Below, in pieces: positions 5,475-37,162 of a stretch of DNA of 64,000 bases. The translations under genes were made by a program, and so were the position numbers. The stretch is from sequence record NC_105825.1; one strand, given 5' to 3'. Source of the DNA: Escherichia phage ECOP18. Under the pieces are notes generated by a model that was not told the origin of the DNA, did not search any database, and saw nothing but the letters and a program-made list of their open reading frames with translations. The first letter of the stretch is position 1; every line of letters begins with the position of its first letter.

Positions 5475-8400
5475 TTAAGAATTTCCTAATGTTTTCAGAC
5501 TAGCACCGTTCTCATTCAGAGCTAATTCTACTGCGTCTCTTAGAGCACCACTATTACTAGAGGCAAACTCTCTAAAACTTGCAGCATCCATAGCACTAAT
5601 ATTCAGGATGATAGGTCTTCCTGAAGTTGAGTTAGACGAGGTTTTTAGCTCATCATTAGGTGTAGCTTTCATAGGAACCATAGGGGTAACTACTTCTGTA
5701 CCATGCTCACCCATTTGATAGCTAACCCCTGGATACATATTACCACCCTCAGCACGAGGAACGAAAGAGTTGGCACTACCTATACCTTGATCGCCACGAA
5801 TATAAGATAGTTCACCTGCATTAGCAGACATGGACACATCTATATTCTTCTGACGCTCTCCTAAGGTTAAGTAACTAGTTGTATCCGCCCCAGAATCAGC
5901 AATACTTGACATACCAGATGCAGAAGATGCTTGTGCTAACGCCAATGCACCCGCTAAACCTGCCGCAACCATTAAAGGAATAGAGAACGGGTATGGTACA
6001 GCTGTTGCCGCTTGCATTACAGCTACTGCAGTTTGGATGATAATCTGCTTCTTAGCTGCATCTTGTTGAATCTTCAGCTTTTCAGCTTCTAGCTTCTTCA
6101 ATTTAGCTTTAGATGCTTCTGATTTACCATCACGTTTCTGCTCTGCTGCAATAGCCTGATCAATTGCACTAACCTGTTGACTAGTACTATATTGGATCAT
6201 AGAGGCTACGGTCTGCATACCGGAAGCAATCATAGATGTAGTATCTAAAGATCCCTGGGAGAATTGAATCATAGCATTGGTTAGGTTACCCATGCTTTGA
6301 GCTACAGCGGTTGCTTCAGAGTTTAGCTCAGATAGTTTAGAGATTGCCTGATCATAAGAAGCCATTCTATTTTGCATATCAGCAAAATCTTTATCTTCTC
6401 CAGATAATCCAGTTGTAGGGGTATACACAGCACCTACAGAAGACCCTACCTGTTGCTGCATCTGGCTATCTCTCTGTTTTCTAAGCTGTTCTAAGGCTGC
6501 TGAAGTTTTATAAATCTCATTACGATATTTAATTTCTTCTTCAGTATTACCTTTAGACAGCTCCAGCTGCTGCTGCAGAATAGATAACCTTTCAGTGAGA
6601 ATCTGGGACTGACCAGTGACATTTCTCTGCGTTTGGCTAACCTCTAAGGCATCCATAAGGGCGGATACATGAGTAGCAGTAGCTTGTTTCTCTGCTTCCC
6701 ATAACTCTCTACTTATCTGTGCTTGAGCACGTCTAGACTGTTCTGCCTCTTTTTGTTTATCCGCTTGTTTTAAGTACCACTCATATTTTTCTTCCTCTAT
6801 AGTTAGTTCTAGCTTTAACTGTGCTAATCTATACTGAGTGCTAGTCATAGTACGGTCATTCAGAAGAGCTATCTCACGATCTACACCCAGAATTTTATCT
6901 GTGTAATCCTTGACCTTTTTCTGGGCTTCCATACCCTGATTAGTAAGCTTAAGTTTCTCCAGCTGAATTTTTTCAATTTCTTTCTCAACAGCTTTATTTC
7001 CCTGGTTTGTTTGAAGAACACGGCGTAAAGCAGCTTCTTGCTCTTCTAACTGTTGCAACTCTAAACGTCTACCAGCTTCCTGAGCCTTTTCCTTATCCTT
7101 AGTTTGATTATACACATCGGCTATTTTCTGTTGAACTGCTAACTGATTTTTAGTTTCATTACCAGTTAGTTTAACATACTCGGACAAGGCCTGAGAAGCA
7201 GTTTTCATCTCAGATAACGTATTATAGCCTAAATTAAGATTTTTAACATACTCATCTGCACTTTTACCCGTACCTAGAGATAGAGATTCTATATTTTTTA
7301 TAGCATCTGCTAAAGTAGCACTAGTTTTAGCAGCAGTATCTGTATTCTGAGCAACGTTCTGTATATCATTAGCTAAGTCACTAGCAGTTTTCTTAGTCTG
7401 ATTGTACGCTTTCTGCTGCTCGGTTAGTCCTTTTAATACAGTAGAGTTAAAATCGTATACAGCATCAGGATCAGTAGTATCTCTCTGTAGATTAATTTGC
7501 TTCTGAAACTCGGGGTTAGCTTTTGCAGCAGCAGCTCCAGCAGCTTGATACGCTGATTTCCAGGCATTAAGGTTTTCAGTAGAATCCTCTACTTCCTTAC
7601 CAAGTCTAGTTACTTGTAGACCCATAGCTGCAGTTTCTGCTACAAATTGCTTATTGGCCTCCGAAGCACCTGCTGCTGCAAGACCAACAGGAATACCTTC
7701 ACCAACTTGACGTATAGCTAGTTTTGTATAGAAATCTGCTTGTTCCATTCGTTTATCGAACTCAGATTTTAGCTTATTACGCTTATCAAGAGATTCCTTA
7801 TACATATCTAGAGCTTTATTATAGCCTTCTTCAGAAGCAGCTAAACTTAAAGCAACAGCACCAACGTTGGTAGGGTCTATCTGTCTATTAGTTTTTTCTT
7901 GAGCTCTAGCTGCCTCCGCAGATATAGAAGCCTGAGAGGTATAAAATACTGTGTTGATAGCATCAATTACTGGCCCTAAATACTTAGCAGCAGCTTGTTG
8001 TATTTTTCTTAGTGCAGCATCTGCATTAGCAGCAAATTGCTCCCATGGAGTTGCACGTAGTACTTCATCTAGGTAGCCAAACCGCTTAGTAGATTCAGCA
8101 ATTACCGCGTTAGCGTATGCTTGTTGTTTCTGGAAAGTGGTAAGACTATTAACATTATATGTTATACCTGTGTTTGCAGCATTTAACTGTTTAACATAAT
8201 CAGCGTATGCGTCATTAAGACGGATGGTGACACCAAGTTCATCTAGAAGTTCGATTTCTTGTTTAGATACGCCCTTAATTACACGGTTAAGTGCATCAGT
8301 CATATCAACACCAAGAACAGCAGCAGCACGACGAGCTACTAAACCAAATTTATTAAGTTGTTCGGCATCAAATCCATAAGCAGATGCTGAAGATGCCTGT

Positions 8401-9155
8401 CTCATTGCTTCCTCAAAAGAAATAGCATATCCAGCAGCTTCTTGTAGTGATCTAGCAAGGGTCTGAACAGGAGTACCTGTCTGAGTACCTACTATAACAC
8501 CAAATTTTTCTAGACGATTTAGCTGATCACCTAGTTTAAGTTGTTCGAATGCAGATTGCAAAACGAAGATGTTGGAAGCAAGAGCTGCGTACATAATAGG
8601 TAAACTACCACCGATCTTAGCCATTGCCGCAAAATCACGAGTTGCACCGCGTGCGGAACCAGAAGTATTACCAATAGCTCTAGAAGCTCTGCCAGCAGCA
8701 CCAGCAGTATCATTAAAACCTCTAGCTGTGCCACCTAATGCTCTATTAGTATCATATAATCTATCCTGGACTTTTTCTGTTGCAGCTGCAACATCATTAC
8801 CCATTGTTTTAACAGATCTAGAAACTCCATCAAATCCGACTTCTAATTTATCTGCTACTTCAATCATTGTAATAGCGAGATCGTCTAACTTAGCTCCTAT
8901 ATCATTAATAGATTTAGTAACACTAAGCATACCTCTGCTAGCTTGCATTTTAGTAAGACTTTTTGCTGCTCTATCCGCTGCCCTCTCAATGGAGTAAAGG
9001 GTTTTGGGCATTTTACCTAACTGCTCATTTGTCAGTTCGGAAGCAGCAGCAGCGTTTTCCAACGCATCAGATACGTTTTCAATAGACTTTGCAGTACGAG
9101 TTGCCCCCTTCTGTTTAACGTCTATTAGTAATTCTCGTATTAGCTTATCAGTCAT
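5475..9155 (-). CDS. tail tape measure protein, pb2-like (1226 aa)
   Basis: Very long Ala/Gln/Lys-rich coiled-coil ORF with hydrophobic C-proximal segment; located between tail tube and baseplate genes. Confidence 0.8.
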   Translation of the reverse strand: MTDKLIRELLIDVKQKGATRTAKSIENVSDALENAAAASELTNEQLGKMPKTLYSIERAADRAAKSLTKMQASRGMLSVTKSINDIGAKLDDLAITMIEVADKLEVGFDGVSRSVKTMGNDVAAATEKVQDRLYDTNRALGGTARGFNDTAGAAGRASRAIGNTSGSARGATRDFAAMAKIGGSLPIMYAALASNIFVLQSAFEQLKLGDQLNRLEKFGVIVGTQTGTPVQTLARSLQEAAGYAISFEEAMRQASSASAYGFDAEQLNKFGLVARRAAAVLGVDMTDALNRVIKGVSKQEIELLDELGVTIRLNDAYADYVKQLNAANTGITYNVNSLTTFQKQQAYANAVIAESTKRFGYLDEVLRATPWEQFAANADAALRKIQQAAAKYLGPVIDAINTVFYTSQASISAEAARAQEKTNRQIDPTNVGAVALSLAASEEGYNKALDMYKESLDKRNKLKSEFDKRMEQADFYTKLAIRQVGEGIPVGLAAAGASEANKQFVAETAAMGLQVTRLGKEVEDSTENLNAWKSAYQAAGAAAAKANPEFQKQINLQRDTTDPDAVYDFNSTVLKGLTEQQKAYNQTKKTASDLANDIQNVAQNTDTAAKTSATLADAIKNIESLSLGTGKSADEYVKNLNLGYNTLSEMKTASQALSEYVKLTGNETKNQLAVQQKIADVYNQTKDKEKAQEAGRRLELQQLEEQEAALRRVLQTNQGNKAVEKEIEKIQLEKLKLTNQGMEAQKKVKDYTDKILGVDREIALLNDRTMTSTQYRLAQLKLELTIEEEKYEWYLKQADKQKEAEQSRRAQAQISRELWEAEKQATATHVSALMDALEVSQTQRNVTGQSQILTERLSILQQQLELSKGNTEEEIKYRNEIYKTSAALEQLRKQRDSQMQQQVGSSVGAVYTPTTGLSGEDKDFADMQNRMASYDQAISKLSELNSEATAVAQSMGNLTNAMIQFSQGSLDTTSMIASGMQTVASMIQYSTSQQVSAIDQAIAAEQKRDGKSEASKAKLKKLEAEKLKIQQDAAKKQIIIQTAVAVMQAATAVPYPFSIPLMVAAGLAGALALAQASSASGMSSIADSGADTTSYLTLGERQKNIDVSMSANAGELSYIRGDQGIGSANSFVPRAEGGNMYPGVSYQMGEHGTEVVTPMVPMKATPNDELKTSSNSTSGRPIILNISAMDAASFREFASSNSGALRDAVELALNENGASLKTLGNS

Positions 9156-9169
9156 GTTTTATTTTCCCA

Positions 9170-9202
9170 ATAAAAAAGGCTCTGGGCAAATCACCCAGAG
9201 CC
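9170..9202 (-). terminator. rho-independent terminator upstream of tape measure gene
   Basis: ggctctggg...cccagagcc hairpin followed by U-run on minus strand. Confidence 0.5.
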
Positions 9203-9237
9203 AAGCCTCATCGTGGAACGCCCATTGGAGGAAACTT

Positions 9238-9606
9238 TTACCGTGCGCGAGATTTAGCATGTGGCTTAACGTTAGGAATTCTCCCGTTTTGCGGTTTATG
9301 CTTCTCAGCACGTTTACGTGCAGCATCTACAGCTTTAGCATCAAATATATTGATAATGTGTAGAACAAATTCTTTTTCTATAGGATCAGTAATCCCATAA
9401 ATATCAAATAAAACACCTAATGCAGCCTTATCCTTACCTATAAAAATAGGAAAGTCACCTGGTATGAAACAGTCAATTAGACTGTTATAAATATTCATAC
9501 TAATAGCTACAATAGGTGGAAAATCTTCGAGTTCAACTGGCATAGCCTTAGGATCAGGCTCTATACCCATTGACTCGCAAAGTATTAAATATTGTTGTTT
9601 AGTCAT
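9238..9606 (-). CDS. putative tail assembly chaperone (122 aa)
   Basis: Small ORF directly upstream of tape measure gene; classic chaperone position. Confidence 0.35.
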   Translation of the reverse strand: MTKQQYLILCESMGIEPDPKAMPVELEDFPPIVAISMNIYNSLIDCFIPGDFPIFIGKDKAALGVLFDIYGITDPIEKEFVLHIINIFDAKAVDAARKRAEKHKPQNGRIPNVKPHAKSRAR

Positions 9607-23921: not shown

Positions 23922-24138
23922 TATTATAGTTGCTTTTATTATCGGGGTAATCGCGGGAGTTTTCGGGACGACTGCGGCTATTAACAAGCATCGTAAATAT
24001 ATTGCGGAAGTATCGCGGGAGATTGCGGAAAGAGAGCGGAAGTTTGACGAGAAACGTGCGGAGTTTGAGCGAGAATGGTCGGATGGATCTCGGGCGTCGC
24101 GGAAGAGATTTCGGGCTAAGGTGAGTGATGAAGAATAA
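23914..24138 (+). CDS. small membrane protein (74 aa)
   Basis: N-terminal TM helix then highly charged tail. Confidence 0.4.
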   Translation: MFSIIVAFIIGVIAGVFGTTAAINKHRKYIAEVSREIAERERKFDEKRAEFEREWSDGSRASRKRFRAKVSDEE

Positions 24139-24664
24139 CTTAAGTATACAGGGCATACAAGAAGCATTTGCTTATGATCCCGAAACCGGAGTTATTACCT
24201 GGAAAAGTGGTAGTCGTAAAGGAAAAGAAGCTGGCACTTTAAATAGAGGATATAGACAGCTTAAGTACAAAGGGTTTAGAGCTTATGCACATCAAATAGC
24301 TTTTGTTATTATGGAGAATAGATGGCCCGAGGAATGCGTTGACCATATTGACAGGAATAAACTAAATAATAGATGGTCAAATCTGCGAGAAGCTACAATT
24401 ACGGAAAATAATCATAATGGTAGAACTTCAAAAACATCCTCGGGCTATCTAAATGTTACGTGGCATAAGGGACTCCATAAATGGATGGTAAGATTACACG
24501 ACAAACATGGACTTATAAAGGGTACTACTGAGTATTTTTCCTACGATAGATTGGAAGATGCAGTAAATTATGCGAATTTACTAAGAAAGAAATTTCATGG
24601 CAGCTTTGCAGTACAAGAGGCATTCAAAGGGAACATACCAGATGTTGTTCAGTTAAACAGTTAA
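24125..24664 (+). CDS. HNH homing endonuclease (179 aa)
   Basis: HQIAF...CVDHIDRNKLNNRWSNLREAT...ENN motif block. Confidence 0.65.
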   Translation: MMKNNLSIQGIQEAFAYDPETGVITWKSGSRKGKEAGTLNRGYRQLKYKGFRAYAHQIAFVIMENRWPEECVDHIDRNKLNNRWSNLREATITENNHNGRTSKTSSGYLNVTWHKGLHKWMVRLHDKHGLIKGTTEYFSYDRLEDAVNYANLLRKKFHGSFAVQEAFKGNIPDVVQLNS

Positions 24665-24785
24665 TTAGCACTAAAATGACTTTTGCCAAATTCTTTGGAT
24701 TACGTACGCGTGGGTGGGTCCACTGCCTCCGGCGAAAATACTTAGTCTGCTAACCGCCACCCCCGTTACTATTACCATGCTAACT

Positions 24786-26093: not shown

Positions 26094-26384
26094 TTATTGT
26101 ACTGTAATACTAGGAGAATGATTAGTTAATTCTAGTGGCACTTTAAACGTTTCTTGTGATAGCGTACAGGCATCTATAACAATAGCCCCCGCTTTACCTA
26201 CTACTAGCACACCATTATAAACAGGGATAATAAAATCACCTTTATGAATTGGATAATCGGGATATTCTAGGAGGTCAGAACATGCGCGATATACTTCCCC
26301 GTTTATATAAGCATCTTGATAAGAAATATCATCCAGTAAAGAGGATTTAGGGGAAAATTCATTGCTAGGTAAATTAATTTTCAT
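26094..26384 (-). CDS. hypothetical pre-early protein (96 aa)
   Basis: ORF track. Confidence 0.4.
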   Translation of the reverse strand: MKINLPSNEFSPKSSLLDDISYQDAYINGEVYRACSDLLEYPDYPIHKGDFIIPVYNGVLVVGKAGAIVIDACTLSQETFKVPLELTNHSPSITVQ

Positions 26385-26394
26385 ATTGCGTCAC

Positions 26395-26652
26395 CTATTT
26401 AATAATAATCTGCATCTGGTACGGCGTTAATTCACCGTTTACGGGTAAATTATTATCACTTAGCCACTCATAAAAAGCGCTATCGTCATCAAAAGGAACA
26501 ACATCATTATCACGGGAATCGACGGAAATAATGCCATCAGTATTAGTTTTGGCGGCTAGGATAGGCCCGAAGCTGTAAACTTTATCGGATTCCATTTCAT
26601 CGGGTGAAATGAATACTTTTTCGTCCAGTGTTTTGGGTAATGTAACTTTCAT
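26395..26652 (-). CDS. hypothetical pre-early protein (85 aa)
   Basis: ORF track. Confidence 0.4.
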   Translation of the reverse strand: MKVTLPKTLDEKVFISPDEMESDKVYSFGPILAAKTNTDGIISVDSRDNDVVPFDDDSAFYEWLSDNNLPVNGELTPYQMQIIIK

Positions 26653-28749: not shown

Positions 28750-29157
28750 TTATTCGCCTGCGGCTTGTTTTACTTCCTCGGCAACGCCTAACAATTGCGC
28801 TACTGCGTCCAGCGTTTCAAGTTTTGCACTTTCAAGGCTTGCCAGATCATCGGCATCTTTGATAATGCCGGAATCGATAGCGTGTTTTGCAATAACGCGT
28901 ACATAATGAGCTTTGCGGATTGAACTACCGCCGCCAACTTTGCGAGGCTTATCGCTTTTTTGATATGCTTTTGCGCTGGTCAATTTTGACCGAACGGATA
29001 CGGGAGAAGCCGCGCCTACTGCTTTTGCAATCTCTTTCAGGCCGTCGCTATTTGCGAAATCTAAACCGTTTTCATTAATTAACTGTTGATACATGGAAAC
29101 AGCTTTCTGAGTGTTTTCTTCATTCCATGCGAATTTTGCGGTTTTAGCGTTAGTCAT
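28750..29157 (-). CDS. A2: A2-like pre-early DNA-binding protein (135 aa)
   Basis: Position upstream of A1-like gene; basic central segment. Confidence 0.45.
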   Translation of the reverse strand: MTNAKTAKFAWNEENTQKAVSMYQQLINENGLDFANSDGLKEIAKAVGAASPVSVRSKLTSAKAYQKSDKPRKVGGGSSIRKAHYVRVIAKHAIDSGIIKDADDLASLESAKLETLDAVAQLLGVAEEVKQAAGE

Positions 29158-29253
29158 GATGTAACTCCTATTAGTTTAATTTAAGGGATTAGATTAACTT
29201 AATGTTAATCGTTATATCCCCCTGAAATAAGGGGATATAAAGTTAACACTAAT

Positions 29254-29505
29254 TTACAATACAGCTTCCCATTTTTCGTTGCGTTGAACAACCTTTACAA
29301 CATCGCCGGATTTAACGCGAACGCTAAAAACGGGCTTGCCGTTGTTACTACGTTCATTTTCAGCGTATACCGCGTCGATTGTATCGAACGGCATAAGCGC
29401 CGCACCTTTAATACGTTCGGCCTTTCCGGTTAATTCATCCGTTTTAGTAACGAAAGGAATGAAGACGGATTGACCAACTTTCGGCGCGGTAATAACGTTT
29501 TGCAT
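29254..29505 (-). CDS. hypothetical protein (83 aa)
   Basis: ORF track. Confidence 0.4.
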   Translation of the reverse strand: MQNVITAPKVGQSVFIPFVTKTDELTGKAERIKGAALMPFDTIDAVYAENERSNNGKPVFSVRVKSGDVVKVVQRNEKWEAVL

Positions 29506-29735
29506 AATATAAACTCCTAGTTATTTGGGGATTGTTCCGCATTACCTGCTAGAAAGTAACAGCAGGTAATAAGTAACAATCCGCTCGCCAATATAATCAA
29601 TTTTAAAGAACTCCACGTAGGCCGCTATATCCCGTTAGGGGGCGGGATGCATTATGGTAAGCACCGACCGTCAAATTTTATCAAGTTATCGCTCTTATCG
29701 AACTGGGTACATCTTAAAACCTATCGGCTAGGTTG

Positions 29736-29939
29736 TCAAACAATTTTTTGCAATTTTTTATGATTTTCTTTTAGGTCAATCATAATATTTCGCCAGATCA
29801 TTTCCAGACCTTGCTGGCGACCTTTCTTGTACTGCGTGAATCTATATCTTACTGATCTTTGAGCTACTGTCAACAAATTTTTTGTTTTGCTATCTAGTGC
29901 CTTAATAGGCTTGCCAGTGATCAAAAGCGTTTGTTTCAT
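29736..29939 (-). CDS. hypothetical protein (67 aa)
   Basis: ORF track. Confidence 0.35.
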   Translation of the reverse strand: MKQTLLITGKPIKALDSKTKNLLTVAQRSVRYRFTQYKKGRQQGLEMIWRNIMIDLKENHKKLQKIV

Positions 29940-30386
29940 ATCGTCGATTCCTTATAATGAATAAGTTTACCGCCGATAGGCTTTAAGATGTACCCAATTT
30001 TTAAAGAGCGTGGCGGTAAACTTCCCGCCGTGTAGTTCGTCATTGCCGCCCTACGAGATAAATAATAGGGGATTCCCGAAAATGGCGCAACCTTATTTTT
30101 GTAAAGAAATGTAAAGGTAAAACTCACCGGACACCGTGCGGCGACGGCCTAAAATTAAAAGAAACGGGCGCGCGAATACCACAAAATAAAGCAAATAGGC
30201 AAGTAATTTTTTCATTTATATTTGCTTTGCCCTACTTGACAAAATCTAAAAAGCTCGTGGTAACGATAAACGGCTTATCCCCTTATGATGGGATGGCTAA
30301 AAACTTTATTGCGTTCTGGAGCGTTTTAGGCGCATTCTAGCCTTGTTGATAACTTATCCCCAAAAGCAAAAATGAAATTTTCCTAG

Positions 30387-30395
30387 TTATCCACT
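30387..30395 (+). promoter_or_regulatory. DnaA box-like (ttatccact)
   Basis: 8/9 match to TTATCCACA; inverted partner agtggataa at 30411-30419. Confidence 0.45.
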
Positions 30396-30497
30396 TGACT
30401 TTTATTTTCCAGTGGATAACTACTTATTTTATGAAATAAATTAATTGACTTTTATTTGTTAGTATGCATCGGAAAGATAGCAGACTAATAATTGCTA

Positions 30498-30512
30498 GAA
30501 TGATAATCATGC
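30498..30512. promoter_or_regulatory. Fur-box-like site (gaatgataatcatgc)
   Basis: Contains AATGATAATCAT, the core of the Fur consensus GATAATGATAATCATTATC. Confidence 0.35.
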
Positions 30513-30518
30513 TGGTGG
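30511..30518 (+). other. Chi octamer GCTGGTGG
   Basis: Exact match; second copy at 33872-33879, same strand. Confidence 0.4.
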
Positions 30519-30683
30519 ATTGTAACGACCTGAATTATTAGCAGACTATTAATCACGGAAAAATCTCATTAGCCAACTAACTATTTCATGATATATAATA
30601 TACATATAAATTAATGAGAAATAATAACTATAAGAAATCATCTAGCTAAGTGAGAACCACTATCATTTAAGTTATACACAAAG

Positions 30684-30692
30684 TTATCCACA
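30684..30692 (+). promoter_or_regulatory. DnaA box (ttatccaca)
   Basis: Perfect consensus 9-mer. Confidence 0.55.
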
Positions 30693-30763
30693 GCACTTTT
30701 TGACTTGACACGATAGGCGGCGATATAAGGACTTTTACACAGACTTATCTACAGGTTATTCCA

Positions 30764-30779
30764 CTGTATAAATATACAG
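30764..30779. promoter_or_regulatory. LexA (SOS) box-like palindrome ctgtataaatatacag
   Basis: CTGT-N8-ACAG with AT-rich spacer. Confidence 0.45.
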
Positions 30780-31046
30780 GGTAAAAAGGTAGTGTTAACA
30801 ACTGCAATCAATTTTAAGCGGCTTAAATCGCATTCTAACGAGCTAAACGCTGCGGGGTAATATTAAAGTAAAGCCTTAATGCGTCGCCCTGGTGGCTTCG
30901 CCGTGGTTTGCTCTTTATTGCACCGCTGCGCGGTTAGCATAAAAATAGGCGCTAGGCAAGGAAAATAAAAAGGTAAAATAATATTTGCCTATGCTAGAAA
31001 TTTACCTTTATCATTCACTCACCGATTAACGAGGGAGGCCGAACAA

Positions 31047-32057
31047 ATGAGGCTTTATAAACCTGATAATGCCACCGTTTTAAAAGGTGCATTGCGCAAC
31101 CTGCTGGATGGTAGCAAGTCAACCAGCATTAAACATTTTATTAACAAGATTGAAACTATTCATCAAAACTTTTTTGATGATTATGACGCTTATGATATGG
31201 ATAGTTTTCTACCCTTATATAGACAAGGGGCAACGCTAGTTTTATATAATCGGGATTGCCATATCTTTACAGGCAGGGGAGCGGGGCCGGATACCGATTT
31301 TATTGTTGCGCAGGGTAATAATATTGTTGCGTATCATAGCAATTCAGGCCGTCAATCATTTAATATAAATAGTTTTGAGCTTATTGGACTTGATCTGATA
31401 AATGGACTTTCTAGCATTGAGGGATTTTTAGATGTTATCTGGAAGTATTTACCCGCTGGATGGCATAAGCCGGATAACGACGGATCTCAATATACCGGTA
31501 TAATGGCTTTTGATGGCGACGGTAATTTTTTGTTACCACGGGAGCTATACCCATATATTTATGATGGGGATATAGAAAGCGCTGGTTTTTCTTTCTGGAA
31601 AGATGAAGATCAGATTATTGACAGCGTAGAAAACCATGCTGTAAATTCTAACACTCAAAGCGTTAACACTCAAACTACTGAAAACAAAGGAAAAAACACT
31701 AGGACCAAGATTGCTAACATCGTTGCCGCTAATAAATCCGCCGTTGTAAATGCTGCAAAACTGGAAGCGGGTAAAATTGCACTGACTCAAATCACGAAAG
31801 TAGCGGCTAAAAAAGCACCGTTCATGATTAAAGGCTATATTGATACGCCGATTGGTCGAGTAGTGATTGCTAACCTGCTAAGTGTAGCGGTTGACCAGTA
31901 CGCACCGACTAACCAGAAAGCGAAAGCGGTAGCAGGGGCGGCTATGGAAGCGGCAATGGTGGAAATGGTGCAAAGTTTTAACATCGCTGAAATGATTGAT
32001 GAAATGGTGAAAGGTATTGATATTTCTACTTTTACCACTAGCACCGAAATCGAGTAA
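31047..32057 (+). CDS. hypothetical protein (336 aa)
   Basis: RBS gagggagg upstream; N-terminal globular part, NT-rich linker, amphipathic Ala/Val/Lys-rich C-terminus. Confidence 0.6.
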   Translation: MRLYKPDNATVLKGALRNLLDGSKSTSIKHFINKIETIHQNFFDDYDAYDMDSFLPLYRQGATLVLYNRDCHIFTGRGAGPDTDFIVAQGNNIVAYHSNSGRQSFNINSFELIGLDLINGLSSIEGFLDVIWKYLPAGWHKPDNDGSQYTGIMAFDGDGNFLLPRELYPYIYDGDIESAGFSFWKDEDQIIDSVENHAVNSNTQSVNTQTTENKGKNTRTKIANIVAANKSAVVNAAKLEAGKIALTQITKVAAKKAPFMIKGYIDTPIGRVVIANLLSVAVDQYAPTNQKAKAVAGAAMEAAMVEMVQSFNIAEMIDEMVKGIDISTFTTSTEIE

Positions 32058-32066
32058 TAATATTTA

Positions 32067-32096
32067 GTGGGGATTATTTCCCCACTTTACTATTCC
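32067..32096 (+). terminator. hairpin plus T-rich tail
   Basis: agtggggattatttccccact followed by ttactatt. Confidence 0.45.
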
Positions 32097-32122
32097 CTTG
32101 TTAATTAATAGGAGGCTAACTA

Positions 32123-32617
32123 ATGGCTGAGGAAAAATACGGCTTCTCGCTAGGAGAAGTGAGCACGGCTAAACATGATATGATCATTTTAGTCGATTGT
32201 CATACTGGCTATTGCGGAGAAGGGAACACCGAAGAATACTTTGTTCCTGCTGGTACGGATCTGGACGCTTTCGCTCATGAAATGGCTATTGATAATGCTT
32301 CTCGTTTTGGTAGCGATGGCTATGAAGACGAAGAAACTGGCGAATGGTATGAAAATGAAAACGTATATGCAAGCCTTTATCATTATCAGCTAAGTAAATC
32401 CGGCACATATGTAAACGGCGGCGATCCTATTAATTCCGTCATGAAATTAATTATTAAATATGGTGGCGTCGAGATAATTGATAACAAAGCGGTAATATAC
32501 GCAAACCGATTAAAACAGCTTGTTTATATTCCTGATAGTACCCGATGGGATGAATACGCTGTTTTGCATGACGAATTGAAACGATGTTTCAATATTGAAT
32601 CCCTGCAAGTAGTCTAA
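32123..32617 (+). CDS. hypothetical acidic protein (164 aa)
   Basis: RBS aggaggc; Asp/Glu/Tyr-rich, no motif. Confidence 0.6.
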   Translation: MAEEKYGFSLGEVSTAKHDMIILVDCHTGYCGEGNTEEYFVPAGTDLDAFAHEMAIDNASRFGSDGYEDEETGEWYENENVYASLYHYQLSKSGTYVNGGDPINSVMKLIIKYGGVEIIDNKAVIYANRLKQLVYIPDSTRWDEYAVLHDELKRCFNIESLQVV

Positions 32618-32722
32618 TGTAAAGTTTTGTAAAGGTCGCCTTTTATGGTGGCCTTTTTTGTTATAATGCTTTTACACCAAAACGGTGGATTGAAAATTTT
32701 CCCAAAAATTTGGAGGCTTAAA

Positions 32723-32953
32723 ATGGTTGCTTATTCTTCTGCTAGTCATCTGTTTACCGCGCAAGGCTGGGTATCTAATCGTGCTGTCATCTATGAAATG
32801 GTGCAGGAGTTCGGCATTGCTAAAACTTATAATACCATTCAGGAACTATATAACGCCGATAAAATCGATCAGCAAACGGCTGGCTTTTTACTGGATACCC
32901 TGAAAGCTGAACATTGCACTAAAAAACAAGCCGCTAAAATTGTTTTAATGTAA
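32723..32953 (+). CDS. hypothetical protein (~76 aa; start moved to ATG with RBS)
   Basis: ggaggcttaaaATG at 32723; ORF track start 32645 lacks RBS. Confidence 0.45.
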   Translation: MVAYSSASHLFTAQGWVSNRAVIYEMVQEFGIAKTYNTIQELYNADKIDQQTAGFLLDTLKAEHCTKKQAAKIVLM

Positions 32954-33002
32954 TTAATAACGGGGCGTTACTTTCGCCCCGATAACTAGGAGGCTATCAC
33001 AA

Positions 33003-33150
33003 ATGGTTATTTTTCGATCTATTTTAGCGGGTATCTTGGGCGCTATTTTATCGTTATTTGCGATAGCTTTCGGCGTTCACGCTGTTATTATTGGCGCTGG
33101 CATTGCTGCGTTTTCTTATCTGCTGGGCTGCATGACTAGTAAAGGAGAAT
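33003..33150 (+). CDS. small membrane peptide (49 aa)
   Basis: Not in ORF track; strong RBS taggaggct; two hydrophobic helices. Confidence 0.45.
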
Positions 33151-33154
33151 AAAA

Positions 33155-33367
33155 ATGATCCGCAACGTTTCCCTTGCACGTTCGAAAGGCTTTAAGCTGG
33201 TGGATGTTAACACGTTCGAGCGGGAAGATTGTAAAATCGAATATGTAGCACGTAACAAAAATGCCTTTCGTGTTACCGAGAAAAAATTTGATAAGCGCGG
33301 CAACGTGATAGCTGAAACAGTTAAACATTTTGCCACCTTTTACGCTGCTTTTCGTGGGGTATTATGA
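33155..33367 (+). CDS. hypothetical protein (70 aa)
   Basis: RBS aaggaga; basic. Confidence 0.45.
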   Translation: MIRNVSLARSKGFKLVDVNTFEREDCKIEYVARNKNAFRVTEKKFDKRGNVIAETVKHFATFYAAFRGVL

Positions 33368-33486
33368 TTCAGCAAATTAAAACGGCTTTTCGTTTTTGGG
33401 GCGTCCTGCCTTCAATTGGTTTTATTCTGATAATTATTAGTCAGCTAATGATCATCGGCGGAACTATTTGGGAGCTATGCAAATGA
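33364..33486 (+). CDS. small membrane peptide (40 aa)
   Basis: Not in ORF track; start overlaps previous stop; single TM helix. Confidence 0.35.
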   Translation: MIQQIKTAFRFWGVLPSIGFILIIISQLMIIGGTIWELCK

Positions 33487-33827
33487 TAATTTATGAAGGC
33501 AATCGCTTTGTTGCTAATTACCGTCCGGCATTATTAGCAAACTATTTAAACCAGCTTTCCCCAGCTTATAAGGGCGTTATTAATATTTATGAGGGAAAGG
33601 CGCATTATAAAATTAATGCGGTCGTTGCCCGTGAACTAGCATTTCAATTTTTGACCTTTGCATCTTGTGACGTTCAGGTTATGGGTGAGGCATTAATCGC
33701 GGAAAATGAAGAGGATTTTATTAATATTTTCCGTAAGGTATGCACTGAGCGCTTGATAATGAAAGGCGCGTATATTCAATCAACTGCGGAAAGTATTGAA
33801 ACAGCATTTCGAAAGGTGGCGCAATGA
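33483..33827 (+). CDS. hypothetical protein (~114 aa)
   Basis: ATGA overlap with previous gene; ORF track frame 33468-33827. Confidence 0.45.
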   Translation: MIIYEGNRFVANYRPALLANYLNQLSPAYKGVINIYEGKAHYKINAVVARELAFQFLTFASCDVQVMGEALIAENEEDFINIFRKVCTERLIMKGAYIQSTAESIETAFRKVAQ

Positions 33828-33927
33828 GATTATATATTTTCGTTGGTAATGTTAAGGCAGCTAATGATTCCGCTGGTGGCGACAACGTTCGCCACCATTG
33901 GCAAAAATATATTTACTAGGAGTTATT

Positions 33928-34035
33928 ATGTCTGGTTTAATGTTTACCTTATTAGTAGTTTATAGCATAATTACGGCAGGAATAGTAACTTATGTTACTA
34001 GTAAAATTTGGCCGGGAATATATGGTAATTTTTAA
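33928..34035 (+). CDS. small membrane peptide (35 aa)
   Basis: Not in ORF track; RBS taggag; single TM helix. Confidence 0.35.
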   Translation: MSGLMFTLLVVYSIITAGIVTYVTSKIWPGIYGNF

Positions 34036-34050
34036 TAACGGAGCGTTATT

Positions 34051-34254
34051 ATGAGCAATAAAATTATTGTAACCAAAATCAGTACAATGGTTGATGTTTT
34101 TTACGTGCCAGATACGCCGGAGAATCGGCAAGCGGTCGAGCGGGGCGAATATGATAAAGTGATTTATGATCACGATGGTTATTATCAGTATTTGGTGGAT
34201 TCCTACGGGGAGGAGGAGAAGATCACGCATCGACTACCGGAGGAGGGTTTATGA
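34051..34254 (+). CDS. hypothetical acidic protein (67 aa)
   Basis: ORF track; RBS acggag. Confidence 0.45.
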   Translation: MSNKIIVTKISTMVDVFYVPDTPENRQAVERGEYDKVIYDHDGYYQYLVDSYGEEEKITHRLPEEGL

Positions 34255-34406
34255 AACGATGGTTTAATCACTGGTACAAGCGGTTTTTAGTACGCCGTCG
34301 CAAGTCTAGGCATCAAGATGAGTGGCGGGAGTGGGCAAAGCGTAACGGTTGCCCGCTACTATAATAATCACGGGGCGCAACTATCGGGAAGTGCCCCCAA
34401 TTCTCA

Positions 34407-34427
34407 AATGAGAATGATTCTCATTTG
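34407..34427. repeat. Fur-box-like palindrome, copy 1
   Basis: aaatgagaatgattctcattt. Confidence 0.5.
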
Positions 34428-34620
34428 ACCGCGCCCGCGATGGTTAGCCTGCTAATGATTAGGGTGTTACGTGTCGCCTTGTGTGATCGTTAGCGAGCTA
34501 ACTAATTTTCAAGCCTCCTCCAATTTTGCCCTTGTTTTAGTATCTCCACCAAAATTAAACGCGTTAGAATGCGATCTAGGACGTTTTAACGCTATATTAG
34601 AATTATTCACTGCGTAGGAA

Positions 34621-34640
34621 TACTGTATATTTATACAGTA
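34621..34640. promoter_or_regulatory. LexA (SOS) box-like palindrome tactgtatatttatacagta
   Basis: CTGT-N8-ACAG, close to consensus TACTGTATATATATACAGTA. Confidence 0.5.
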
Positions 34641-34648
34641 GGATAAGC

Positions 34649-34657
34649 TGTGGATAA
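34649..34657 (-). promoter_or_regulatory. DnaA box (tgtggataa)
   Basis: Perfect reverse complement of TTATCCACA. Confidence 0.55.
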
Positions 34658-34721
34658 GTCTGTTAATAACACCCCAAAATGGCTAGGATTCTGTCAAGTC
34701 AAATCGTGCTGTTAATAAGTC

Positions 34722-34730
34722 TGTGGATAA
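34722..34730 (-). promoter_or_regulatory. DnaA box (tgtggataa)
   Basis: Perfect reverse complement of TTATCCACA. Confidence 0.55.
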
Positions 34731-34796
34731 CTTAAATAATAGTGTTTCTCACTTCCGTTCTTAAATACGAATCACTATCATTTGCGTTCCACTTTC

Positions 34797-34815
34797 TAAA
34801 TGAGAATCATTCTGC
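34797..34815. repeat. Fur-box-like palindrome, copy 2
   Basis: taaatgagaatcattctgc. Confidence 0.45.
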
Positions 34816-34901
34816 TTTTTAAAGGAGAATCGTTTCACTTCCTGAATAATTCTCACTTCCATTCTTAAATGCGAATTATTATCATTCTCATTCCGCTTTT
34901 T

Positions 34902-34930
34902 AAATGAGAATCATTCTCATTATCATTCGC
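34902..34930. repeat. Fur-box-like palindrome, copy 3 (perfect 19-bp palindrome AATGAGAATCATTCTCATT)
   Basis: aaatgagaatcattctcattatcattcgc. Confidence 0.5.
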
Positions 34931-34964
34931 ATTCAGGCGAGCAGGGCAATTGCCCTGCGCTTTT

Positions 34965-35632
34965 GTGCAAATCCGACATTGCTCCACGGGTGTTACGTGC
35001 GGGCGTGTATGTGCGAATCCGACAATTTTTGGTAGTGTGCAAATCCGACCCGAAAAATTTTTATAGTGTGCAAATCCGACAATGAATTTTCCTAAAAACT
35101 CCAGCAATCACGAACTGCGTTCGAATCCTGTGGGGTATGTGCAAATCCGACACGGTTTTTCTAGGATTAAGATGTGCGAATCCGACAAGATTTTTGTGAC
35201 TTCGATTGGAGGGTGTGTGATTGTGTGAGTTTGGGGAGAAGTTGAGAGAGCGAGAAAAATTTGAGGGAACTGCGGGAGGGGCGCATGTTTGGTGCGGAGC
35301 ACCTGATTTGCGGGGATTTTGGGGAAGAGTTGAGAAGATTTGGGTTAATTTGAGATTAGTGCAGAAAAAGTAAAATTTTATTAGCTAAATGGAGCAAAAT
35401 AGCTTGACAAGTGAAAATTCTTGTGGCTCTAAAAACTCAGGCAATCATGGGCCTTCGGCCCGAAATAATGCTGCCATTTTCAGGAGATTATGTGTCCATG
35501 AAAACTCAGGCAATCATGGGCCTTCGGCCCGAAATAATGCTGCCATTTTCAGGAGATTATGTGTCCATGAAAACTTAGGCAATTGTGCAAATCCGACCAG
35601 TTTTTAAACTTATGTCAGTGTGCAAATCCGAC
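34965..35632 (+). repeat. dispersed direct-repeat family GTGC(A/G)AATCCGAC(A/C), eight copies
   Basis: Copies at 34965, 35011, 35037, 35068, 35139, 35174, 35585, 35619; each followed by a T/A-rich tract; spacing irregular. Confidence 0.7.
35432..35569 (+). repeat. perfect tandem duplication, 2 x 69 bp, each unit with GGGCC-TTCG-GCCC hairpin
   Basis: Unit aaaactcaggcaatcatgggccttcggcccgaaataatgctgccattttcaggagattatgtgtccatg repeated head to tail. Confidence 0.8.
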
Positions 35633-35677
35633 AGTAATTTCTGGAAATGTGTTTTGGAAAAATGCCCTCTAGAAATA

Positions 35678-35749
35678 ACCGCCCTCCCAATAACCGCCCT
35701 GTATTAAACCGCCTAGTATATGTTCCTAGAAACTTAGGAGAACCGCCCT
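35678..35749 (+). repeat. short direct repeats aaccgccct (3-4 copies)
   Basis: Copies at 35678, 35692 and 35741, plus a degenerate copy at 35707. Confidence 0.5.
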
Positions 35750-36077
35750 AGAAAGAGGGAGTATTTCGTGAGAACTCTGGAGTTTCTAGGAAAGTGTTGT
35801 GCCATCCTAGCAGAAGAGCGGCAACCGGTGTATCATCTTGAACACAAATATTGCCTTTAAATATTTTTAGTTATTTAAAAGTAAATATACCCCCATTTCA
35901 TGTGAGATTCCTCGTGGGGCGCGTGAGTATTACGGAAGAACTCTAATATTGGCCCGCGCTAAGACTAGCCGCTATAGCACAGACGCAAATAGAGTTGTAA
36001 TAATCATCGCCCCTAGAGTTCACAATAAGAGTTATTGTTAATCTATGAGATTATTATAACATACATTTTTAATAACG

Positions 36078-36833
36078 TCAAGAAGATTTTACTAATGTTT
36101 TTGGATTCTTCTTGGCTTTGAGATATATCCCTTTAGATGCTAGATAGATATATGTTGCTAGAAATGAAGATTCTGATCCCGATTCCTCATAGGTTAACGT
36201 ACCTCTAGGGTATTTATTTGTTTTAGGAGCATAGTTAAGCACAGCCGCAGTTAATGACCCTAATCCTAGAACATCTGCAAGACGTCTAAAGGTATTCTCT
36301 TCATCATGGATAGCATAAAGAATGTTATCTTCAATATCCGTTAATGGAATTTTACGGGTATGAGATACTGCAATCCGTGCTATCATAGCTCCAATTGTTT
36401 TATTAATATCCTCGAAAGAAACACTCTCCATATATTTTAGAGGGGGAAGATGGTCATATTTACATTTCTTAGGTGGAATAAGAAGTTGTTCAGGATAAGC
36501 CTCTAGTGCCTGACGAACGTTTGCTTCTGGATATGTTGGTAAAGGTTCATCTATAATAACATGTAAGAAATTAGCTCTGTGCCCCTTAGCAGTTGGATCT
36601 AAAGACTTCAATATTTTGTTCATATCCACGTATGAATACGCTAGATCTGCTTGAGGAGCATTAATATCAAACTTAATCTTCTTACCTTCCCATTTAGCAG
36701 GGAACATCTCACAAACAAACATTACTGCATGTTTAACATCTGGCTCTAGCTCTGATAGACATTTGTGATCTGCTGTTACTGCTAAAGCGAGTATATTCTT
36801 AAATTTATTAGCTTCTTCAATCATATATCCCAT
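36078..36833 (-). CDS. hypothetical early protein (251 aa)
   Basis: ORF track; no motif recognised. Confidence 0.45.
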   Translation of the reverse strand: MGYMIEEANKFKNILALAVTADHKCLSELEPDVKHAVMFVCEMFPAKWEGKKIKFDINAPQADLAYSYVDMNKILKSLDPTAKGHRANFLHVIIDEPLPTYPEANVRQALEAYPEQLLIPPKKCKYDHLPPLKYMESVSFEDINKTIGAMIARIAVSHTRKIPLTDIEDNILYAIHDEENTFRRLADVLGLGSLTAAVLNYAPKTNKYPRGTLTYEESGSESSFLATYIYLASKGIYLKAKKNPKTLVKSS

Positions 36834-37162
36834 GCCTGCTGACTATTATCACTAACTTGTGTCTTTTTCTTTCTTTGTGGTTTAAAAGCTCCTTTAGTAT
36901 TGCTTCTATTAGGCTCTAATTTATACCACAGCATTCCTAGCTGGTTAACCATATGAGCAACATTTCTAGGAGTCAATGGTGGTAGAAATTCGCAGTTTGA
37001 TATTTCCACTAATATATTAAGTAACTCTGTCTCTTTAGCTTTACTGTTTACTACCACCACGTATTCTAATGTTTCTACCTCGGAATCCTCGTCTTTATAG
37101 TAGAGGCTAAGAGTAATTAAATTGTCACCAGCAGGAGTTATTTTTGTTTTACCAAATATCAT
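36821..37162 (-). CDS. hypothetical early protein (113 aa)
   Basis: ORF track. Confidence 0.4.
   Translation of the reverse strand: MIFGKTKITPAGDNLITLSLYYKDEDSEVETLEYVVVVNSKAKETELLNILVEISNCEFLPPLTPRNVAHMVNQLGMLWYKLEPNRSNTKGAFKPQRKKKTQVSDNSQQAWDI

Follow-up and report, generated by a model that had tools for sequence, protein, structure and literature searches.

A T5-type rightward pre-early operon with variable gene content in the Escherichia phage ECOP18

A pre-early operon in the long terminal repeat

The stretch of DNA analysed here (the window) comprises 64,000 nucleotides of Escherichia phage ECOP18 (NC_105825.1), a Tequintavirus. Eleven genes (g1 to g11) tile positions 31047–34364, all on the plus strand, with a coding density of 92.6% over this interval. 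GGAGG-type ribosome-binding sites (RBSs) precede nearly every start, the weakest being that of g6, and ATGA overlaps are found at four junctions (g5/g6, g6/g7, g7/g8 and g10/g11). GC skew is positive in this block only. The block is 99.8% identical to phage MM-1, where it aligns to positions 6026–9342 of the left terminal repeat; in the window, the long terminal repeat is represented by one collapsed copy fused to the right genome end. Within this repeat, the operon has the divergent pre-early promoter region on one side and the injection stop signal on the other, and its transcription runs away from dmp/A1/A2 (A2 homolog at 28750–29157, minus strand). The sequence-only reading of this DNA had described a compact plus-strand module of about ten genes, opposite in polarity to dmp/A1/A2, adjoining a repeat block and situated in the DNA that enters the cell first. 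Each of these features is borne out: the repeat block is confirmed at 34400–36000, and in this T5-like phage the region belongs to the first-step-transfer DNA.

The same reading had proposed an undescribed system, and this proposal does not hold. The block is the T5-type rightward pre-early operon, which is annotated in T5 as T5.011–T5.017 (NC_005859) and whose promoter has been characterised in that phage, and thus the locus is not new. Gene-by-gene tblastn comparison shows a colinear order, with amino acid identities to T5 of 89% (011), 83% (012), 65% (013), 100% (014), 92% (015) and 88% (017), whereas for T5.016 residues 1–19 alone match. The T5 operon (NC_005859, 6495–9157) shares its terminal-repeat position, orientation and promoter with the ECOP18 block, and in both phages DnaA-box inverted repeats flank the operon and an injection-stop repeat block lies downstream. 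ECOP18 differs from T5 in carrying an additional gene that has no T5 counterpart (g2, 164 aa) and two additional small cassettes (g6 and g9), in having T5.016 reduced to 19 codons and a g4 product 10 residues shorter than T5.013, and in a divergent control region that lacks hegG (T5.010).

A consensus scan identified a putative sigma-70 promoter for the operon at 30985–31014 on the plus strand (-35 TTGCCT, 18-nt spacer, -10 TATCAT), accompanied by an A-rich upstream element. In an alignment with T5 6380–6510, BF23 and Bas26, this promoter is nearly identical to T5 6411–6489, where NC_005859 records a promoter, and is conserved in the other two phages. The T5 promoter upstream of gene 011 has been experimentally characterised (Annor 2026, bioRxiv 10.64898/2026.04.02.716235). 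A search for the classic T5 promoter sequence PN25 gave no match, so the operon is not driven by that promoter.

Three plus-strand hairpins are candidates for transcription terminators. The first (32066–32086, 8-bp stem), which follows g1 at the position of the putative terminator 7534–7559 of NC_005859, has a weak T-run and therefore probably causes only partial termination. The second (32631–32662) follows g2 and resembles an intrinsic terminator, with a 10-bp stem and a T-run; the BF23 record carries a predicted terminator and promoter at the equivalent site. The third (34372–34397) lies at the operon end, at the position of the putative T5 terminator 9275–9296 (NC_005859). There may be an internal promoter before g3. 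An Rfam scan of 29000–37000 yielded no match.

The operon is bracketed by the arms of an imperfect inverted repeat of 132 nt (30648–30779 and 34623–34754, 77% complementary). The left arm carries the DnaA boxes TTATACACA, TTATCCACA and TTTTACACA, and the right arm carries paired DnaA boxes and is where the repeat block of the injection stop signal begins. This arrangement corresponds to the IRC-spacer-IRD described by Davison in T5-like phages (bioRxiv 10.1101/866236).

Encoded proteins and their orthologs

Scans of the ORFs with Pfam, NCBIfam, PHROG and PADLOC recovered only DUF7566 (in g1) and PHROGs lacking a function. None of the ten proteins compared with the PADLOC defence families (g1–g7 and g9–g11) gave a match at E ≤ 0.1, and PDB sequence searches with g1, g2, g5 and g7 gave no match below E = 0.5. 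All of the ORFs, including the small ones, are under purifying selection, with pN/pS values of 0.03–0.41 pooled against at most 14 related phages; g6 and g9 each offer a single informative comparison.

The first gene, g1 (31047–32057, 336 aa, phrog_4263), encodes the ortholog of T5.011 (89% amino acid identity) and matches the whole Pfam DUF7566 model across residues 2–334 (1e-112, 377 bits, cut-off 27). Its product consists of a variable alpha/beta N-terminal domain (residues ~1–185), a Q/N/T-rich linker (187–216) and a helical C-terminal module (~217–330); the AF2 model has a pLDDT of 58. With pN/pS at 0.41 in the N-terminal and 0.13 in the C-terminal part, g1 is a fast-evolving N-terminal domain attached to a nearly invariant C-terminal module. 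The C-terminus had been described as amphipathic; it is indeed helical, and rich in Ala, Val and Lys, but its hydrophobic moment reaches at most 0.35 and it contains no transmembrane (TM) segment.

Whereas the DUF7566 model covers the full T5.011-type protein, an exhaustive search showed a wide distribution for the C-terminal ~125 residues only. This module is present in 679 representative clusters and is elsewhere joined to unrelated N-termini, including HIRAN domains. Homology of the g1 N-terminal domain to HIRAN found no support, as the C-terminal modules alone align. T5.011 is a bipartite protein, with a C-terminal module that is common in uncultured phages and sometimes fused to a DNA-end-binding HIRAN domain. 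Such a fusion fits the published phenotype, as toxicity and a perturbed nucleoid are reported for T5.011 (Mahata et al. 2021, PMC8201957; Annor 2026), and it offers a route for further study.

The acidic g2 protein (32123–32617, 164 aa, pI 4.4) belongs to phrog_6741 and to no Pfam family. The gene is found in BF23, other Tequintaviruses and Epseptimaviruses and is missing from T5, and therefore the screens based on T5 could not include it. Its fold is predicted with confidence and resembles no solved structure; comparison with DNA mimics of the Ocr and ArdA type revealed no fold match, and we do not assign g2 to that group. In a Klebsiella phage the g1 homolog is likewise followed by a 164-aa gene, but hhalign did not support its homology to g2. 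Given these attributes, g2 represents a family-wide, confidently folded protein overlooked by the T5 screens.

The g3 gene (32723–32953, 76 aa, pN/pS 0.12) encodes the T5.012 ortholog (83%) and is preceded by the RBS TGGAGG. A longer reading of 102 aa from 32645, of which residues 27–102 are matched by phrog_5145, was rejected because its start lies inside the terminator hairpin and has no RBS. T5.012 was not toxic in the T5 screens (PMC8201957; Annor 2026). The next gene, g4 (33003–33152, 49 aa, phrog_5607), specifies a hydrophobic hairpin peptide (Kyte-Doolittle 2.54) orthologous to T5.013 (65%). Expression of T5.013 caused a lysis-like loss of cell integrity in one study (Annor 2026), contrary to an earlier screen in which it was not toxic (PMC8201957).

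The basic g5 protein (33155–33367, 70 aa, pI 10) is the ortholog of T5.014 and is 100% identical to the T5, BF23 and oldekolle proteins, with a pN/pS of 0.03. Neither screen found T5.014 to be toxic (PMC8201957; Annor 2026). The g7 protein (33483–33827, 114 aa) is the ortholog of T5.015, matching phrog_4379 at 4e-62 and the T5 reference protein (YP_006843, 114 aa) with 92% identity over residues 1–114. T5.015 is an Ung-dependent nickase that binds Ung and nicks abasic (AP) sites, and its toxicity requires Ung (PMC8201957). The likeness between the two proteins extends over their full length; the nickase activity was demonstrated for T5.015, whereas g7 is known by sequence.

The sole functional PHROG label among the ORFs sits on g5, where it is apparently misplaced. 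In public annotation, g5 is called 'endonuclease nicking abasic sites... Ung', yet it corresponds to T5.014, a protein distinct from the T5.015 studied by Mahata et al. Genes are listed by T5.0xx locus tag in that study, and T5.014 was among the non-toxic ones (PMC8201957). UniRef names the 70-aa protein 'ORF015' and the 114-aa T5.015 (AAS77062.1) 'DNA-(apurinic or apyrimidinic site) endonuclease'. The PHROG and RefSeq label on g5 is therefore probably an off-by-one error whose true bearer is g7, and it is spreading through annotations.

The remaining products are small. The single-TM peptide of g6 (33364–33486, 40 aa, Kyte-Doolittle 2.33) has a pN/pS of 0.15 from its one informative comparison. 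Its gene is sporadic, being shared by MM-1 and phB7 only among the 15 loci compared, and its exact sequence occurs on 31 contigs within a 20-member cluster. The 31-aa g8 (33824–33919, phrog_22819, pN/pS 0.26) is a conserved ORF and corresponds to T5 8641–8733, which is unannotated there. A second single-TM peptide, encoded by g9 (33928–34035, 35 aa, RBS TAGGAG, Kyte-Doolittle 2.05, 17-member cluster), forms a sporadic cassette common to slur09 and MM-1. Overlapping both g8 and g9 in another frame is the 19-codon remnant of T5.016 (33864–33965, within an ORF at 33843–33965), probably a recombination scar left when g9 replaced the body of that gene. Maximum 19-residue Kyte-Doolittle scores of 2.0–2.5 give g4, g6 and g9 the hydrophobicity expected of the small membrane peptides anticipated from the sequence. 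The acidic g10 protein (34051–34254, 67 aa, pI 4.6, phrog_6973) is the ortholog of T5.017 (88%), which is non-toxic (PMC8201957; Annor 2026). Finally, g11 (34251–34364, 37 aa, pI 11.6, RBS GGAGGAGG, pN/pS 0.15) encodes a Trp/Arg-rich protein, and a homologous ORF lies unannotated at T5 9154–9264.

The presence of each gene was tabulated across 15 phage loci. The g1 C-terminal module, g5 and g7 form a core that is found in all Markadamsvirinae phages compared, and the association of g5 with g7 is constant. Absence of g2 is confined to T5, g6, g8, g9 and g11 are sporadic, and the remaining genes come and go. Comparison with one Epseptimavirus had made g3 and g4 appear Tequintavirus-specific, but three more genomes refuted this.

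Proposed function and its alternatives

We judge, with a probability of roughly 0.78, that the operon products are independent accessory effectors of host takeover rather than parts of one machine. Two observations lead to this explanation: the gene content varies among phages, which favours a string of independent effectors over a single multi-gene system, and three of the T5 orthologs have distinct toxic phenotypes. On plasmid expression, 011 and 015 were toxic in one screen (PMC8201957), and 011, 013 and 015 were toxic in another, each with its own phenotype (Annor 2026). The sequence-only reading had looked to this DNA for host-takeover functions, and this part of it holds. It had also called for tests of toxicity on expression and for deletion of the genes, and such checks are mostly published for T5; removal of hegG-017 from a phage that already carried left-arm deletions gave viable phage with smaller plaques. 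However, a function has been assigned to only three of the eleven proteins, which weighs against our explanation; accordingly, we infer it rather than assert it. Moreover, the functional data all come from T5 orthologs, and g4 is just 65% identical to T5.013. The constant adjacency of g5 and g7, together with the pN/pS of 0.03 for g5, indicates that these two proteins could work together, which goes beyond a simple string of effectors.

Under the effector explanation, host sigma-70 RNA polymerase would initiate at the 30985–31014 promoter once the terminal repeat enters the cell. Transcription would proceed through g1, presumably terminate in part at each of the hairpins that follow g1 and g2, and read through into g3–g11, a string that is likely to be translationally coupled. 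The products would then act within the few minutes preceding second-step transfer, and literature on relatives supports expression before that step (PMC13250531). The g7 protein would bind host Ung and nick the abasic sites that Ung makes in uracil-containing host DNA, whereupon replication and division would stop. The g1 protein would perturb the nucleoid, and we infer that its C-terminal module binds a conserved partner, with the fast-evolving N-terminal domain conferring specificity. The g4 peptide would damage the membrane, and g2, g3, g5, g6 and g8–g11 are probably useful in particular hosts only.

The class I genes 0.3–0.7 of T7 and the immediate-early ORFs of T4 (ndd, alc) are likewise small, dense, driven by host promoters, mostly dispensable and often toxic. 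The ECOP18 operon resembles these early strings in its densely packed small genes within the first-entering DNA. In contrast, we found no sequence or fold similarity to them, and two-step injection creates a separate expression window.

The alternative that survives best, although we regard it as unlikely, is that the operon or a single gene within it supplies the function that protects T5 second-step DNA against restriction enzymes, CRISPR-Cas and RecBCD, and is thus an anti-defence module. In an equally doubtful narrower form, one gene, most plausibly g5 or g1, would shield Tequintavirus second-step DNA from restriction enzymes and CRISPR-Cas. A pre-early protection function has been inferred for T5 but not assigned to a gene (PMC10644984; PMC8594841; bioRxiv 10.1101/866236), and most operon proteins have no assigned function. 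Deletion of the right operon leaves phage that are viable on E. coli F, and therefore RecBCD protection cannot rest on this operon alone. On the other side, phage with the additional hegG-017 deletion form smaller plaques, which speaks for the protection role. The invariant and basic character of g5 makes it an attractive candidate, as do the acidity, wide distribution in the family and unusual fold of g2, but T5 is insensitive to restriction (PMC10644984) despite lacking g2, and neither a PADLOC model nor the fold of a DNA mimic was matched. Comparison of the restriction-insensitive Tequintaviruses with the more sensitive Epseptimaviruses singles out no gene, the g1 N-terminal domain alone differing consistently, and Maffei et al. 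explain part of this difference by recognition-site number (PMC8594841). Davison's preferred candidate is T5p007 of the left operon (bioRxiv 10.1101/866236). Regardless, the operon retains value as a short list for DNA protection in T5-like phages and for host takeover in the first minutes.

Less probable still is that g4, g6, g9 and their neighbours work at the inner membrane and, instead of attacking the host, either control the channel for DNA entry and the way injection pauses and resumes or exclude superinfecting phages. Three hydrophobic peptides do occur in one operon, the bracketing DnaA-box repeats have been associated with the stop signal for injection (bioRxiv 10.1101/866236), and T5.013 affects cell integrity. 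However, second-step transfer requires only A1 and A2, phage without hegG-017 complete infection, and the membrane-peptide genes g6 and g9 are sporadic.

It is highly improbable that several of g6, g8, g9 and g11 are not genes, with that part of the block serving as spacer or regulatory sequence: they span a mere 31–40 codons, no PHROG family covers g6 or g9, g8 overlaps the T5.016 remnant in a different frame and several public records leave these smallest ORFs unannotated, but their pN/pS values are 0.09–0.26 where they are present (g6 and g9 on one informative comparison each), the length and reading frame of g6, g9 and g11 are maintained over many contigs (clusters of 17–23 members), and these ORFs carry RBSs and ATGA coupling.

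Gene content and identity of the operon

The interval 31047-34364 is tiled by eleven plus-strand ORFs (g1 to g11) with a coding density of 92.6%, and ATGA overlaps occur at four junctions (g5/g6, g6/g7, g7/g8 and g10/g11). Thus, the compact plus-strand operon recognized in the sequence-only reading is borne out. The same reading called its ribosome-binding sites (RBSs) perfect, and GGAGG-type sites do precede nearly all of the ORFs, the weakest site being that of g6. The anticipated assortment of small membrane-type, acidic and basic proteins is also evident, as represented by hydrophobic peptides (g4, 33003-33152; g6, 33364-33486; g9, 33928-34035), acidic proteins (g2, 32123-32617; g10, 34051-34254) and basic proteins (g5, 33155-33367; g11, 34251-34364). 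Every ORF is under purifying selection, with pooled pN/pS values from up to 14 related phages ranging from 0.03 (g5) to 0.41 (the N-terminal half of g1). These genes are real. A 102-aa ORF starting at 32645 was rejected as a false start, given that its start lies within a terminator hairpin and that the PHROG profile match is confined to the final 76 residues, a stretch with an RBS of its own.

On sequence comparison, this block is the T5.011-T5.017 operon of the T5 reference record (NC_005859), matched gene for gene. Orthologs were assigned for T5.011 (g1, 31047-32057; 89% amino acid identity), T5.012 (g3, 32723-32953; 83%), T5.013 (g4; 65%), T5.014 (g5; 100%), T5.015 (g7, 33483-33827; 92%) and T5.017 (g10; 88%). 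The initial observation was correct, but the locus is already known, and its proposed status as an undescribed system does not stand. In the window, T5.016 is reduced to its first 19 codons, in a different frame, and this remnant looks like a recombination scar left where a cassette carrying g9 took the place of the T5.016 body.

Counterparts of g8 (33824-33919) and g11 exist in T5 without annotation. The conserved g8 homolog (T5 positions 8641-8733; 31 aa, 90% identity) and the conserved g11 homolog (9154-9264; 37 aa, 86%), the latter located past T5.017 and within the annotated injection stop signal, indicate that the count of 17 pre-early genes for T5 may be too low.

Transcription signals and genomic setting

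A predicted promoter (30985-31014), with a −35 element TTGCCT, a −10 element TATCAT and an A-rich upstream element, is located upstream of g1. It aligns almost base for base with an annotated T5 promoter (6411-6489) and is kept in BF23 and one Epseptimavirus. The T5 promoter upstream of 011 has been called experimentally characterised (Annor et al., bioRxiv 10.64898/2026.04.02.716235). Hairpins that match the sites of putative terminators in the T5 or BF23 records reside 3′ of g1, g2 and g11.

Promoter and operon are together enclosed by a 132-nt imperfect inverted repeat (30648-30779 and 34623-34754) with paired DnaA boxes, three of which lie on the plus strand (30672-30741) and two on the minus strand (34649-34730). 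The full extent of this repeat (30648-30847 and 34555-34754) comprises 132 nt plus 35 nt that are 77% complementary. This arrangement matches a structure reported for T5-like phages, wherein an IRC-spacer-IRD element has its inverted partner at the injection stop signal (Davison, bioRxiv 10.1101/866236).

Approximately 4.5 kb around the operon shares 99.8% identity with Escherichia phage vB_EcoS_MM-1 (MM-1, a Tequintavirus) and 90-95% with over 100 other T5-like phages. The equivalent operon of MM-1 (6026-9342) resides inside a 10.4-kb left terminal repeat. In the window, this repeat is present as a single copy, with the right genome end (receptor-binding tail protein and cor) as its left neighbour and the first early genes adjoining its right side, and therefore the source record is a permuted assembly in which the two repeat copies have been collapsed. 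Given this location, the earlier placement of the operon in the first-injected DNA is correct.

Several differences from MM-1 were also observed. The window carries approximately 560 additional bases where the right genome end meets the terminal repeat (24110-24668), and this extra segment includes an HNH-endonuclease-like stretch (24161-24442). The dmp region, which makes up the initial 1.4 kb of this repeat, is just 86% identical between the two phages, and approximately 300 bases (26098-26396) do not align to MM-1. Elsewhere in the repeat, the two phages share 98.6% identity.

A probable set of independently acting effectors

Of the experiments that had been recommended for these genes, those on toxicity and deletion are already published, though for the T5 orthologs rather than for the ECOP18 genes. 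When T5.002-T5.017 were cloned, 008, 011 and 015 proved toxic, and gp015 was found to bind Ung and to nick the abasic sites that Ung makes, which leads to arrest of replication and division (Mahata et al., PMC8201957). All 17 T5 pre-early genes were subsequently expressed by Annor et al. (bioRxiv 10.64898/2026.04.02.716235). In that study, gene 011, whose wild-type form was unclonable whereas a recoded version could be cloned, caused slight cell elongation with uneven nucleoids; gene 013 caused a lysis-like loss of cell integrity; and gene 015 caused elongation with guillotined nucleoids. The same work established that A1 alone is responsible for host DNA degradation, and that a T5 mutant lacking hegG-017 in addition to left-arm deletions, such that only A1, A2, hdi and 009 are left, is viable but forms smaller plaques.

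Among the 15 phages that we compared for gene presence, the C-terminal module of g1, along with g5 and g7, occurs in every member of the Markadamsvirinae. By contrast, g3, g4 and g10 are variable, g6, g8, g9 and g11 are sporadic, and g2 is missing only from T5. Some phages carry an additional gene of approximately 100 codons between g1 and g2. This mosaic gene content, considered together with the three differing toxic phenotypes, favours a series of separately acting effectors over a single system. With a probability of roughly 0.78, we favour the explanation that the operon is a pre-early string of independent takeover effectors driven by a host promoter. Its products would include a nickase, a protein that perturbs the nucleoid, a peptide that damages the membrane, and several accessory proteins of conditional use.

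An anti-defence role, as had been suspected from the position of the genes, is an unlikely alternative. T5 is insensitive to restriction and CRISPR (PMC10644984; PMC8594841; bioRxiv 10.1101/866236). Counting against such a role of the operon, the T5 deletion mutant is still viable, T5 has no g2, and a between-genus comparison picked out no gene. A membrane role in injection control or superinfection exclusion is less likely again. It is very improbable that the smallest ORFs are non-coding, as the four smallest have pN/pS values of 0.09-0.26, those for g6 and g9 each being derived from one informative comparison.

Proteins of continuing interest

Although the specialist value of the locus is low, there is remaining value in the unassigned proteins g5, g2 and g1, in an annotation correction, and in the restriction phenotype. 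The correction concerns the description 'endonuclease nicking abasic sites generated by host uracil glycosylase Ung', which is attached to the 70-aa g5/T5.014 protein by PHROG phrog_4227 and by many RefSeq and GenBank records, including NC_005859. We consider this label very probably wrong for g5/T5.014, and judge that it belongs to the 114-aa g7/T5.015 protein. The Mahata gene list uses T5.0xx locus tags (PMC8201957), the numbering of Annor et al. is that of NC_005859, with 013 as a two-TM protein (bioRxiv 10.64898/2026.04.02.716235), and T5.014 was non-toxic in both screens (PMC8201957; bioRxiv 10.64898/2026.04.02.716235). In UniRef, the AP-endonuclease name belongs to the 114-aa T5.015, whereas the 70-aa protein appears under "ORF015", taken from a different T5 record, and the SIA3lw record already names the 114-aa protein as the endonuclease. 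Most likely, ORF015 was mistaken for T5.015. If the label is indeed wrong, then the operon's most conserved protein, g5, has no assigned function. Its sequence is the same in T5, BF23, oldekolle and ECOP18 despite synonymous divergence of up to 34%.

Homologs of g2 form 18 clusters, all from T5-like phages, with conserved motifs that include TGxCG, GGDP and RLKQLVYIP. This protein falls outside both toxicity screens because T5 lacks it. Its AF2 model is confident (pLDDT 87, pTM 0.82), and the fold recurs in structures predicted for uncharacterised proteins of phages that infect Klebsiella, Pectobacterium, Pantoea and Vibrio. Some homologs carry an inserted CxxC...CxxC segment. In four of these (P0013, P0014, P0016 and P0018), an insertion of approximately 17 residues (columns 76-100 of alignment A1) reads CPECG...CEDC/CPDC, a spacing typical of zinc ribbons, and it is located exactly at the most acidic loop of ECOP18 g2 (YEDEETGEWYENEN).

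The g1 protein has two parts. An alignment of 28 homologs shows almost no variation in the last 125 residues, whereas identity in the N-terminal domain falls from 95% to about 60%; relative to Epseptimaviruses, the two parts are 90% and 34% identical, respectively. The DNA coding for the C-terminal part diverges by approximately 15%, and thus the constraint acts on the protein. When 1.8 billion representatives were searched exhaustively, 679 clusters matched, most of them over residues ~200-334 only, and the module is always C-terminal in proteins of 110-550 residues or else stands alone. HIRAN is one type of partner, being combined with DUF7566 in at least 30 clusters. The C-terminus had been described as amphipathic; it is helical and rich in Ala, Val and Lys, but its low hydrophobic moment leaves this description poorly supported. 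AF2 modelled g1 poorly (pLDDT 58), and the fold matches of this model were uninformative. We infer that the C-terminal module may serve in docking or assembly with a conserved partner, and that the variable N-terminal domain is possibly DNA-directed, which would fit the nucleoid phenotype.

Among cultured phages, the T5.011-type module is found only in T5-like phages. Two genes fusing HIRAN to the DUF7566 C-terminal module are present in uncultured phage-like contigs of approximately 90 kb (L016, 8001-9671; L017, 8001-9092), where they end long same-strand arrays of small, unannotated early-style ORFs and are near genes for RdgC, a DNA methylase and an SNF2-type helicase. Within 8 kb, the genes with Pfam annotation include no recognisable homolog of A1 or A2, and therefore the module may extend beyond T5-like phages.

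The 336-aa frame of g1 is intact in the window, as in T5. A length difference of one base has led to annotation of the MM-1 homolog (6026-7035) as two CDSs (6026-6805 and 6802-7035), and this difference is either an error in the MM-1 sequencing or the mark of a pseudogene in that phage.
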